From Escherichia coli (GTDB lineage Bacteria; Pseudomonadota; Gammaproteobacteria; Enterobacterales; Enterobacteriaceae): a stretch of 64,000 bases of DNA. This document shows positions 9,228 through 12,089 of the stretch, in pieces (the first letter of the stretch is position 1; each line of letters starts with the position of its first letter). Below the pieces are notes generated by a model. The model saw nothing but the letters and a program-made list of their open reading frames with translations, was not told the DNA's origin and made no database searches. The position numbers were made by a program, and so were the translations under genes. The stretch lies in the NCBI RefSeq assembly GCF_009931435.1, contig NZ_CP043414.1; one strand, given 5' to 3'.

Positions 9228-9497
9228 ATGAACAATATCAAAATGATTACGCTCTTCTATCCCCATGAAAAAACACCATTTATGATCTGTATTGTAAACA
9301 AAGTAGAAGATACAGAACTTGGATTGAAATTAACTCTTGAAAACGGCAACAACATTTGTGTCAATAATTATAGTCATTATCTGTTATCAGAGTCTGTAAA
9401 TCGTTGTAATAAAGAAAGGTTAAAGAGTATTTATATTCGCTTGGTTTCAGAACTCACGCAGATGAGTGAAGAAACTATAAAATCGCAGATGTTTTAA
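9228..9497 (+). CDS. Hypothetical protein (89 aa)
   Basis: ORF opening a plus-strand cassette; no motif recognised. Confidence 0.5.
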   Translation: MNNIKMITLFYPHEKTPFMICIVNKVEDTELGLKLTLENGNNICVNNYSHYLLSESVNRCNKERLKSIYIRLVSELTQMSEETIKSQMF

Positions 9498-9579
9498 AAG
9501 TTATATTGAACATAATAAATATTTTTGATATTACGGTCAGTTGCATGGTATTAAATAAAAGAATAACAGGAAAAATATC

Positions 9580-9984
9580 ATGCGAAAAATAAAAACAAAA
9601 ATCTACTTGCCTACAGCTTTAACAGGAAACATGGATAAACACTATATCCCTGTTCTAGAGGATTTAAGAAAAGCGATATACAGCGACAGAATGTTATCAA
9701 GGCTTGCAGATAACGGTAGTATTGTTATCCATAGTTCAGTTGGGTATCCGGTTGCTAAATACAAAAACACGGGGATTAGCATAGGTATAGAACCATTGAA
9801 TCCAATGATAAGACAAGATCTGACTCTTGGATATATCGTGGTCGTCAGAAACGGGAAATCATCACAGGAGATTAATGGTTTACTTAACAGGTCATTGCCA
9901 AAAGCAATAAGCACTTTTAAGGATCACATCAATGAATATGAAGCAGTAAAAAGTAAAATGCGACAACAAACTATGATCTGGTAA
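9580..9984 (+). CDS. Hypothetical protein (134 aa)
   Basis: ORF with AGGA RBS; no motif recognised. Confidence 0.5.
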   Translation: MRKIKTKIYLPTALTGNMDKHYIPVLEDLRKAIYSDRMLSRLADNGSIVIHSSVGYPVAKYKNTGISIGIEPLNPMIRQDLTLGYIVVVRNGKSSQEINGLLNRSLPKAISTFKDHINEYEAVKSKMRQQTMIW

Positions 9985-10021
9985 AATATTTAATCTGATA
10001 ACTTCAGGAGGAGGATGAGCG

Positions 10022-11005
10022 ATGGAAGGTAAGTTAATTTTTTGTTCCGATGCAATACTACGGTTTCAGTCCGATTACGATGAAACCGCTGCCGTTCCAT
10101 TGCTATCCATCCAGAACGTCATAGCCGATACCGATCCGTTCTTTCTTCTCCGTTTCTTCCACCATACCGTTCTGATTGAAGAAGGAACAACGCTGGCAAG
10201 TATCTTTCTGGCAATAGAACCGTGGAAGGCTTTGTTAGCGGCTTATCTGGACAGAGATGTTGGTGCTTATATAGATGAGGTAAGAAAACCGTCCGGGCCA
10301 ACGACATGGGATATTGAATGGATTGGGATTGATCGTCGTAGCATGGTTTACCGCGCTTATAAACGTCAGGAGATGCAGGATGGAGAGGATTTTTCTGACT
10401 ATTTAAACCGGGAACGCGTTCTGACCGATGAATTTGAAATTGAAAGTGGCTGTGAGGCTTCTGGCTACATTAAAGGTGATAAAGAACGCTGGAGCATCAG
10501 TGGTGATGTTCACGAGATAAAGAATCTGCCTGTAATCCTCTATAGCAAACAGACATTGATGACTTCACCGAAAGACGGTTTGCTGAAGAAAAACGTATCG
10601 GGTGTGAAGAGTTCCAAGCACAGTTGCTTCGTTTATGGCGATACCTCGTTTTCATTGAGAGAGGTTATGGAAGCCATCTACATTAGCGGGCTGTTCTTCT
10701 ATGCGCCAAGAGACGCCGCCAGTAGTCTTGATGCGCTGAAAGCGAGTGTGGCTGGACTGGAAGACGAACTGACCGAGGTGCCTGAAACAGAATCGGATAA
10801 TAATGAAACAGATGAAGAACCTACCATCGTCGTAGCCGACGGTGCTTTTGATTCGCTCGCTGCTCACATGGAGTCTGAAAAAGCGGAGTGGCAATACATT
10901 AAGAAGTTGTGCCAGCAAGATAGCGAGCTGCCCATACGTATTGGTAGTATCAGAATAGCTGAGCCTGCGGAGCTATGTATTGGCGGGAAAATCTTACATG
11001 AATAG
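10022..11005 (+). CDS. Hypothetical protein (327 aa) with acidic C-terminal region; higher GC than neighbours
   Basis: Very strong RBS (AGGAGGAGGA) upstream of ATG 10022. Confidence 0.6.
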   Translation: MEGKLIFCSDAILRFQSDYDETAAVPLLSIQNVIADTDPFFLLRFFHHTVLIEEGTTLASIFLAIEPWKALLAAYLDRDVGAYIDEVRKPSGPTTWDIEWIGIDRRSMVYRAYKRQEMQDGEDFSDYLNRERVLTDEFEIESGCEASGYIKGDKERWSISGDVHEIKNLPVILYSKQTLMTSPKDGLLKKNVSGVKSSKHSCFVYGDTSFSLREVMEAIYISGLFFYAPRDAASSLDALKASVAGLEDELTEVPETESDNNETDEEPTIVVADGAFDSLAAHMESEKAEWQYIKKLCQQDSELPIRIGSIRIAEPAELCIGGKILHE

Positions 11006-11171
11006 GTACAGGCAACAGTTAGCATTGTGGTGAAAGGATATGGTGTATGTTTGCTCACTTTTTTGTGTTATCTCCTGATCAACCCTATGTCGACTATGGT
11101 AAAATTCCCAACTTTAACACCAACGTAGCAAGTGTTTTATGAGCGCGTAGTCAACCAGTAAGGACATTGAA

Positions 11172-12089
11172 TTGAACATTAACGCAACACCAGTATTAAT
11201 TACACTTGTCTACGAAGCGCTTTTAAGATCCTTTTGGCGTAAACCCGCACTCAAAAAATTTTTGTTATCGTCGCATATTTCTGAAAGCTTCATTTCAACT
11301 TGGAGAGAAGATGAATCAAAAAGAAATTTTTTAGATCGTTTGTTCCCTAAATTACAAAGTAGTGCAAAAGGAAAAAATGTTATCTGCCATATGGCAGTTA
11401 ATCTTTCTGAACAGACTTCTTTTCCTGATTTAAAAGGCTGGGAAGATTCTCTACAAATGATTCAATCTGCAACTGATGCCATAAAAGATTTAAAAAACTA
11501 TATAACAAAACAAAATGAAGAACATCAGACTGAAAAAGAAAAACAAGAGTTCAGAGCACGAGCAGAAAAAGAGAGAACTGAAATAAAACGCTCTGAGACG
11601 GATTTGATGAAATTAAAGAATGAATTTGAGTGTTTGCATAATGAAATAGGAACTCAAAATGGTGGCTACGCATTTGAAAAGTGGTTTTTTAAACTTGTAG
11701 ACTACTGTGAAATTGTCTGTAAAAAACCATATAAAACTAATGGTAGGCAAGTAGATGGAGCCATAACTATTGAAGGCACTACGTACCTTGTTGAATTAAA
11801 ATTTCAGAAAACACAGGCTGACGCCATCGACATCGACTCATTAAAAGCTAAAGTGAGTAAAATGGCTGATAACACGATGGCTGTAATGATTTCTGTATCA
11901 GGTTATTCCTCTGTTGCCATAACTGAATCATCGGGTAGTCGAACCCCTTTATTATTATTAGATTATAGCCATTTATATTTATTCTTGAGTGGTGGAATGA
12001 GATTTGATGAAATAATTACACGGATAAGACGCCATTCTTCACAAACAGGAGAATCTTACCTATCTGTAAATTCATTTGGTGGATTTTAA
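11172..12089 (+). CDS. Putative nuclease: N-terminal domain plus coiled coil plus C-terminal Mrr-like PD-(D/E)xK restriction-endonuclease fold
   Basis: C-terminal GYAFEKWFF...RQVDGAITIEGTTYLVELKFQK fits the Mrr G-x-x-FE / D / E-x-K pattern; apparent TTG start at 11172 with AGGA 7 nt upstream. Confidence 0.55.
   Translation: MNINATPVLITLVYEALLRSFWRKPALKKFLLSSHISESFISTWREDESKRNFLDRLFPKLQSSAKGKNVICHMAVNLSEQTSFPDLKGWEDSLQMIQSATDAIKDLKNYITKQNEEHQTEKEKQEFRARAEKERTEIKRSETDLMKLKNEFECLHNEIGTQNGGYAFEKWFFKLVDYCEIVCKKPYKTNGRQVDGAITIEGTTYLVELKFQKTQADAIDIDSLKAKVSKMADNTMAVMISVSGYSSVAITESSGSRTPLLLLDYSHLYLFLSGGMRFDEIITRIRRHSSQTGESYLSVNSFGGF

Follow-up and report, generated by a model that had tools for sequence, protein, structure and literature searches.

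A one-gene cargo slot holding a candidate defence nuclease in a ROD21-like island of Escherichia coli

Effector-associated domains (EADs) are small, non-enzymatic adaptors which have been likened to death-fold domains and are predicted to couple effectors to core components through homotypic contacts, and Mrr-like restriction endonucleases (REases) are listed among the effectors of EAD systems (Kaur et al. 2020, eLife, PMC7159879). Other defence candidates have been nominated by their position: the PDC candidates, which Payne et al. added to PADLOC, include 145 that were picked by 'guilt by embedding', for their location within BREX, DISARM or type I restriction-modification (R-M) loci (Payne et al. 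2024, bioRxiv 10.1101/2024.01.29.577857), and PDC-S02 may or may not be one of these. TgvAB, a type IV system located inside a type I operon, is experimentally protective against hypermodified phages (PMC11411939). Here we describe a 64,000-nucleotide stretch of Escherichia coli DNA (assembly GCF_009931435.1, contig NZ_CP043414.1; the whole stretch is called the window below), and in particular four same-strand open reading frames (ORFs), genes 1 to 4, the last of which encodes a predicted PD-(D/E)xK nuclease. A first-pass annotation, made by a model from the letters of the sequence, had taken the four as one candidate defence module. We found with high confidence that gene 4 alone makes up the cargo of a ROD21-like mobilisable island and is independent of genes 1-3, which belong to the island backbone. 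The best explanation of the locus, to which we assign a probability of about 55%, is a backbone operon (genes 1-3) followed by a one-gene slot whose occupant is a candidate defence nuclease that stands alone and for which activation by self-assembly is proposed.

The distribution of the four genes gives the clearest evidence for this division. By megablast genes 1-3 were matched in 519 of 5,426 complete E. coli genomes, 87 of these at a coverage of at least 80%, whereas gene 4 was matched in only 4 of the 5,426. In alignments of the window to sister islands the homology stops at 10966-11002, in the 3' end of gene 3, and restarts at 12150-12152, which is the stop-codon end of a lipoprotein gene on the opposite strand. 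As the homology breaks at ~11003 and resumes at 12150, gene 4 is the sole gene of a variable slot (Table 1). Gene 2 and its flanks (segment 9498-9973) form a clean indel, which the window island and several others carry and which is missing from Nissle 1917-type and Klebsiella-type islands, where the homology jumps directly from 9497 to 9974. For gene 3 we found 210 homologues, all of them in Enterobacterales (including S. Enteritidis, Dublin and Gallinarum) and all annotated as hypothetical.

Further, genes 1-3 were seen together with at least six other cargos. We then turned to the gene 4 homologues of 43 species-representative genomes. Only three of these loci, from the Enterobacterales Serratia, Erwinia and Cedecea, have any of genes 1-3 upstream of the homologue; the three share the island backbone, and in none of the 43 were all three genes found together. 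The conserved co-occurrence on which a four-gene module would depend is hence absent among the species loci. The earlier interpretation was half right: its idea of a defence nuclease and its failure to match the gene set to a named system both stand, while the four-gene module falls.

The same breakpoints flank different known or candidate defence genes in related islands, as is expected of a defence hotspot. Between the same flanks we detected a type I Thoeris system (ThsA E = 8e-203, ThsB E = 1e-85), and, in another island, an FRG protein matching PDC-S15 (E = 3e-100) encoded after an 85%-identical copy of the nuclease gene. The slot of another island holds a DUF2971 protein matching PDC-S31 (E = 5e-15), and in one island the cargo is a hypothetical protein and a different restriction endonuclease. 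DUF4238 proteins, which we take to be validated single-gene defence, are also among the occupants. The commonest occupant in E. coli is a 390-aa DNA-binding (helix-hairpin-helix) protein of the ComEA family, found in Nissle 1917, 536, ATCC 25922, NC101 and others; the Nissle 1917 copy (L012, 6464-7636) had no PADLOC match, and its place in this slot raises the possibility of a defence gene that has gone unrecognised.

Direct family searches with all four proteins (Pfam, NCBIfam, PHROGs, PADLOC and PDB sequences) gave nothing significant. Structure prediction, which had been proposed as a check, was run for the gene 4 protein with AlphaFold2 and gave a three-part architecture at a mean pLDDT of 85 (Table 1). 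In this model a helical, EAD1-like death-fold domain at residues 7-79 is followed by a helix of ~65 residues and by a PD-(D/E)xK domain like those of FokI, BspD6I and Mrr. The charged helix and the nuclease signature named in the first-pass annotation are all present, with GYAFE at residues 165-169, VDGAI at 194-198 and ELKFQK at 208-213. Among 59 aligned sequences, which reach down to ~24% identity, E169, Q193, D195, G196, E208 and K210 are each at least 85% conserved, so the E...D...(E/Q)xK residues stand in a conserved order, and the domain is modelled with the alpha/beta fold of restriction endonucleases. The junction between the N-terminal domain and the long helix is conserved too: F84, P85, D86, L87, W90, E91, D92 and S93 are invariant in alignment A1, and F84 and L87 are at least 85% conserved among the 59 diverse members.

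The nuclease domain has 10-15% sequence identity to the cleavage domains of FokI, the R.BspD6I small subunit and N.BspD6I and to the Mrr-like AF1548; in contrast to the type IIS enzymes, the gene 4 protein has neither an attached DNA-recognition domain nor a partner nickase subunit. With E. coli Mrr and the type IV enzymes it may share a catalytic domain of the Mrr_cat type (PF04471); Pfam found this domain in 10 of 26 close homologues, the best at 5e-7. It differs from E. coli Mrr in its domain order and partner domains and in lacking an N-terminal winged helix, so that its architecture is not that of an Mrr-type type IV enzyme, and Mrr_N gave no match in the gene 4 protein or its close homologues. 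The Pfam EAD1 family was matched by 6 of 45 family members at E <= 1e-3 (best 8e-7) and by 16 of the 45 at E <= 0.1, and the modelled N-terminal domain matches the CARD, death and pyrin folds. The protein has no recognisable sequence-reading domain. When a profile of the N-terminal domain was used to search for other architectures, only short fragments of the same family were returned. Some homologues carry a weak precomputed Pfam label, DpdD; this assignment was dropped, as no dpd genes lie nearby and a Pfam scan of the alignment members gave no DpdD.

The gene 4 family is large and uniform in length. The 90%-clustered database holds 1,041 matches, all of ~304 aa, and the 50%-identity cluster library gave 1,299 clusters at E <= 1e-3 and 471 at E <= 1e-10, nearly all of 300-310 aa. 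Homologues at 58-66% identity occur in Pseudomonas, Xenorhabdus, Aeromonas, Oceanospirillum, Methylophaga and Commensalibacter, and a Foldseek search against AFDB50 recovered proteins that share this architecture over their full length in Verrucomicrobia, Actinobacteria, Bacteroidota, Firmicutes, CPR bacteria and others. The labels given to the family in AFDB/UniProt are 'Restriction endonuclease / type IV Mrr domain-containing' only. A plasmid collection yielded just two full-length relatives, at 27% identity, and a phage collection none. A 90%-identical variant of the nuclease was seen on 301 contigs of Klebsiella pneumoniae; other carriers are Salmonella enterica, K. variicola and Serratia, and in L010, an E. 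coli island with Klebsiella-type proteins, the variant is paired with an FRG (PDC-S15) gene.

The TTG start of gene 4, with its ribosome-binding site (Table 1), had been part of the first-pass annotation and is independently supported by the homologues, as the start of those at 58-90% identity coincides with it in the alignment; conservation is strong over the first 95 residues. The gene is frameshifted in E. coli 1504D004 (L001, 11916-12850) and 1604D011, where it has 917 nt instead of 918 and is split into two ORF pieces. In the 1504D004 copy RefSeq annotates only the 232-aa C-terminal ORF, and many Klebsiella and Salmonella database entries are 232-aa forms, probably from a missed TTG start.

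The family occurs as a stand-alone gene and is associated with defence loci and type I R-M operons. Clustering of the flanking ORFs of the 43 species loci gave type I R-M genes as the only recurrent neighbours. Eight of the 43 homologues, from Desulfofustis, Hydrogenophaga, Geobacteraceae and five Verrucomicrobia (39-49% identity), lie inside a type I R-M cluster in which HsdM, HsdS and HsdR were confirmed by NCBIfam, and in five of these eight loci (L050-L053 and L055) the homologue has hsdS and hsdR as its immediate neighbours on either side, the ORFs abutting or overlapping. In the Desulfofustis locus (L042) one additional gene separates the homologue from hsdR. The 467-aa protein encoded by this gene (8925-10328) is without NCBIfam match, similar-sized related ORFs are seen in L053 and L055, and it may be another embedded defence candidate.

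More distant members show similar neighbourhoods. A 35%-identical member (L059) is followed by hsdR with a 4-bp overlap, a 27%-identical member lies 5 bp after a ResIII+Eco57I enzyme, and a 25%-identical member is found among putAbiC, GmrSD_N, CTD7/MC3 and nSTAND3 genes. The Xenorhabdus homologue stands alone between fbp and ppa, and the Pseudomonas homologue adjoins a GmrSD_N gene. The Oceanospirillum homologue (L020; L008, 2514-3143) has a DUF4145 protein and a UvrD-family helicase directly upstream on the same strand, with RES-Xre and ParE near; this locus is a small defence or toxin-antitoxin island beside a transposase fragment.

By sequence comparison the gene 4 family matches no named system and is a remote relative of the candidate PDC-S02. 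A PADLOC v2 search of the locus, also proposed earlier, confirmed a Lamassu pair, left genes 1-3 unmatched and gave gene 4 nothing but a weak PDC-S02 match. PDC-S02 is likewise a single-gene candidate of similar size, with profiles of 324-346 positions. The gene 4 protein scored 14.3 bits (E = 0.0046), residues 102-263 being aligned to positions 147-309 of a 346-position profile, and the R-M-embedded relatives reached at most 25 bits with alignments extending up to 102-282 against 147-328. The two differ in that the N-terminal third is unaligned, the alignment covering the helical segment and the Mrr-like nuclease only. Membership in PDC-S02 was rejected since these scores (14 bits, and no more than 25 for the relatives) are far below family level. 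It should be noted that the embedding of gene 4 family members in type I R-M loci is of the sort from which PDCs have been nominated. According to the DefensePredictor preprint, 13 E. coli systems of the PD-(D/E)xK type have been validated, and the gene 4 family may or may not be one of them.

The EAD1-linked effectors (PMC7159879) resemble the predicted architecture of the gene 4 protein, in which an N-terminal helical, EAD1-like adaptor is fused to a putative enzymatic effector, and Mrr-like REases are among the effector types. They differ from it in that no EAD1-matched core component (VMAP, iSTAND, GAP1 or Ubl) was found near any locus examined, that a long helix is placed between adaptor and effector, and that the family, common among unicellular Proteobacteria, travels as a lone gene. 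As for PrrC and TgvAB, part of the family shares with them the location inside type I R-M clusters beside hsdS/hsdR, but there is no homology, and the window copy and its close relatives are not embedded.

Taking these observations together, we think it likely that gene 4 serves defence against phages or other mobile DNA. The mechanism is proposed more tentatively, and assembly activation is a possibility to which we give somewhat less than even weight. FokI-type cleavage domains cut only when two come together. Because the gene 4 protein has a FokI-like cleavage domain and no sequence-reading domain, and because its other two modules are of self-associating kinds, we infer for it a nuclease activity, an activation by assembly, a trigger and a cell outcome. 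The protein would be held inactive at rest; an infection-associated trigger would make it assemble homotypically by way of its EAD1-like domain and long helix; the cleavage domains would thereby be paired, leading to non-specific DNA degradation; and the outcome could be either direct restriction of incoming DNA or abortive infection. We also entertain a more far-reaching proposal, which we rate as rather unlikely in its entirety: a self-sufficient death-fold nuclease, in which the EAD1/CARD-like domain and the coiled coil drive an infection-triggered, higher-order assembly that switches on the FokI-like domain without any NTPase or signalling partner, and in which the recurrent insertion by hsdS/hsdR provides a second line when type I restriction is evaded or inhibited. 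If true, bacteria would have in the death-fold nuclease a minimal counterpart of CARD-driven proximity activation.

Several points weigh against a stand-alone defence nuclease activated by self-assembly. In the literature we found no phage or plasmid phenotype for any family member, and no paper describing the EAD1-like/helix/Mrr architecture as a tested defence system. The gene 4 protein itself gave no Mrr_cat match even at E <= 10, and it matched EAD1 at E = 0.27 only, in the same region as the family matches; with the window protein scoring weakly or not at all, the EAD1 and Mrr_cat assignments rest on family-level transfer and the predicted structure. No second EAD1-like ORF was detected in the window or in the flanks (up to ~8 kb per side) of 64 loci, and the N-terminal-domain profile found family members only. 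The frameshifted copies in two E. coli strains show that gene 4 is dispensable. Finally, the 166-bp spacer upstream of gene 4 is without a promoter-like site at the scan threshold, though the scan is uninformative as it gave fewer sites than shuffled sequence overall; with no such site the expression of gene 4 may depend on read-through from the backbone operon.

The alternative that survives best, though we judge it unlikely, is a type IV-like modification-dependent enzyme, in which the N-terminal domain reads modified or foreign DNA and the Mrr-like domain cuts, complementing type I R-M in the manner of TgvAB or GmrSD. The Mrr/FokI-like catalytic domain fits such an enzyme, as do the weak PADLOC mREase_IV matches of family members (E = 9e-5 to 6e-3), the GmrSD_N gene neighbouring the Pseudomonas homologue and the embedding in type I R-M loci, which parallels TgvAB (PMC11411939). 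However, the N-terminal domain matches EAD1 and the death folds, and neither a known modified-base reader nor a winged helix; there is no Mrr_N-type domain and no NTPase partner.

The position of the homologue directly between hsdS and hsdR in five loci, and inside type I clusters in 8 of the 43 loci and in L059, could also be explained by a PrrC-like guardian, where the type I R-M complex silences the nuclease and a phage anti-restriction protein releases it. The abutting or overlapping ORFs suggest co-translation, and PrrC is a precedent of a gene almost always embedded in type I R-M. For the present locus we consider this improbable: the window contains no hsd genes, the homologue stands alone in 35 of the 43 loci, including positions between housekeeping genes, and the clade at 58-90% identity to which gene 4 belongs is never embedded in our sample. 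The guardian explanation seems plausible for the embedded clade, less so for the window gene.

It is quite improbable that the gene 4 protein is an EAD1-coupled effector which is recruited homotypically by a larger NTPase-based conflict system whose genes lie in another part of the genome, as the assignment of its N-terminal domain to EAD1 might suggest. A second EAD1-like ORF was found neither in the window nor in any flank examined, and the family spreads as a single gene among very different genomes and islands, which is unlikely for an effector needing an unlinked partner. Nor, to our knowledge, is E. coli a typical host of the vWA-MoxR/GAP1 systems that have been described with EAD1.

A non-defence role, where the nuclease serves the island (by competition with other elements, addiction or processing of island DNA) or is a decaying passenger, is very improbable in our view. 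The gene is carried on a mobilisable island near RepL and origin-like repeats, two strains have frameshifted copies, and no phenotype is known for the family. Set against this are the strong, full-length purifying conservation across phyla, the location of most members outside this type of island, the consistent association with R-M loci and defence islands and the lack of any homologue in the phage collection. Lastly, a four-gene defence system, with three unknown proteins sensing or regulating the nuclease, is hardly credible, for although the genes share one strand with short gaps (82, 37 and 166 bp) and without a terminator-like site in any of them, so that co-transcription is possible, genes 1-3 occur with the other cargos, gene 4 is without them in 40 of the 43 species loci and never has all three, gene 2 is an indel, and genes 1-3 are confined to Enterobacterales while the nuclease is spread over many phyla.

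With this correction a false four-gene system disappears, and three ORFs pass to the backbone of ROD21-like islands. In addition, a one-gene slot is now precisely delimited in an island family matching about one in ten complete E. coli genomes, including Nissle 1917, 536 and ATCC 25922, and this slot can be mined for defence genes. Gene 4 is a well-delimited and widespread single-gene candidate with an unusual adaptor-nuclease architecture, and for now one among many candidates. If it defends alone, this would show that regulation of an effector by a death-fold adaptor is possible outside the NTPase core systems from which EADs were defined, and a compact nuclease system would be added to the defences embedded in type I R-M operons.

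The island itself is ROD21-like, MobQ-mobilisable and defence-rich, and is inserted at ssrA. The mobilizable ssrA island with a Lamassu-like neighbour described in the first-pass annotation was thus borne out, with ssrA, the integrase, MobQ and LmuA/LmuB all identified (Table 1), and the GC content is 40% to the left of the transfer-messenger RNA (tmRNA) gene and integrase against 51% to the right. In the RefSeq annotation of near-identical E. coli islands the backbone genes carry S. Enteritidis ROD21 names (the lipoproteins SEN1984 and SEN1982), and the backbone also includes H-NS paralogues, DUF4756, RepL, DUF4755, MobQ, TraD and type IV pilus genes. The ROD21-named lipoproteins, H-NS paralogues, MobQ, TraD and type IV pilus are the features shared with the excisable enterobacterial ROD21/EARL islands (PMC6035254, PMC8844411) and ICEKp258.2 (PMC10763509), and gene 3 homologues are present in the ROD21 host serovars. 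The papers on ROD21/EARL and ICEKp258.2 make no mention of genes 1-3, nor of the slot after gene 3 as a defence hotspot. The window copy differs from the ROD21/EARL islands in being integrated at ssrA, with the integrase beside the ssrA 3' end, and not at an Asn-tRNA gene. Insertion at the Asn-tRNA gene is reportedly the rule for EARL/ROD21-like islands.

Table 1. Features of the window around gene 4, of the gene 4 protein and of the island (positions in the window).
Feature	Position	Strand	Remarks
Gene 1	9228-9497	+	89 aa; island backbone, outside the nuclease module; present with other cargo in L002, L010, L011, L012, L013
Gene 2	9580-9984	+	134 aa, pI 9.9; facultative backbone gene; absent from L010 and L012
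Gene 3	10022-11005	+	327 aa, pI 4.6; backbone, Enterobacterales-restricted; left border of cargo slot
Variable cargo slot	11006-12149		166-bp upstream spacer, gene 4 and 60 bp downstream
Shine-Dalgarno-like AAGGA	11160-11164	+	read from sequence; 7-nt spacer to TTG at 11172
Gene 4, PD-(D/E)xK nuclease gene	11172-12089	+	305 aa, TTG start; exact protein WP_198598474.1; sole gene of the cargo module
N-terminal five-helix domain, EAD1-like, death-fold (predicted)	11187-11411	+	residues about 6-80
Junction motif FPDLKGWEDS, N-terminal domain/long helix	11421-11450	+	residues 84-93
Single long charged helix, presumed coiled coil	11448-11645	+	residues 93-158 (DSSP on the model), 42% D/E/K/R
PD-(D/E)xK nuclease domain (predicted)	11655-12047	+	residues 162-292, alpha/beta
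Catalytic codons (putative)	E169 11676-11678; D195 11754-11756; E208 11793-11795; K210 11799-11801	+	
SEN1984-family lipoprotein gene	12150-12569	-	backbone; right border of cargo slot; product name from RefSeq
RepL gene	7754-8311	-	divergent from gene 1
39-nt direct repeats, hairpin-forming, in the RepL-gene 1 gap	8722-8760 and 8861-8899		backbone; 85% identical to each other
MobQ relaxase	15283-16764	-	mobilisation gene of island
LmuB	20247-22019	-	PADLOC E = 2e-224
LmuA (DUF4297/Cap4-type)	21991-23079	-	PADLOC E = 2e-137
P4-type integrase	23625-24854	-	adjoins ssrA 3' end
tmRNA (ssrA)	25019-25381	-	integration site

All four ORFs were recovered with the lengths first reported for them. Genes 1-3 gave no Pfam, NCBIfam, PHROGs or PADLOC family match, in agreement with the earlier remark that the three upstream proteins are without recognisable motif. 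Gene 3 had been singled out for its GC content and an acidic tail; its 46.0% GC is indeed distinct from the 31-36% of the neighbouring genes, while 'tail' is slightly off, the acidic stretch being residues 237-266, short of the very end. The AT-rich gap of ~900 bp with palindromic repeats proved to be 916 bp between RepL and gene 1, at 30.5% GC and with two 39-nt repeats that form hairpins (z = -4.6 and -2.6 on the + strand). A search of Rfam with 8200-12300 gave no match. The repeat region is kept in the sister islands, and the repeats could be origin, iteron or terminator elements of the island. The hairpins are of 13-14 bp and interrupted, and a T-run follows the first repeat.

Elsewhere in the island the complete Lamassu pair adjoins the integrase. 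Upstream of the H-NS/DUF4756/RepL block, islands of this family vary at a second spot, and the cargo seen there is a NACHT-domain protein in one strain and, in another, a Ser/Thr kinase matching PD-T4-6/mad6 with E = 6e-55 (L002, 2169-4010; L013, 35-1531). At the left end of the island segment, at 735-5396, lies a gene for a 1,553-aa autotransporter adhesin of the Ag43/AIDA-I type with a C-terminal beta-barrel.

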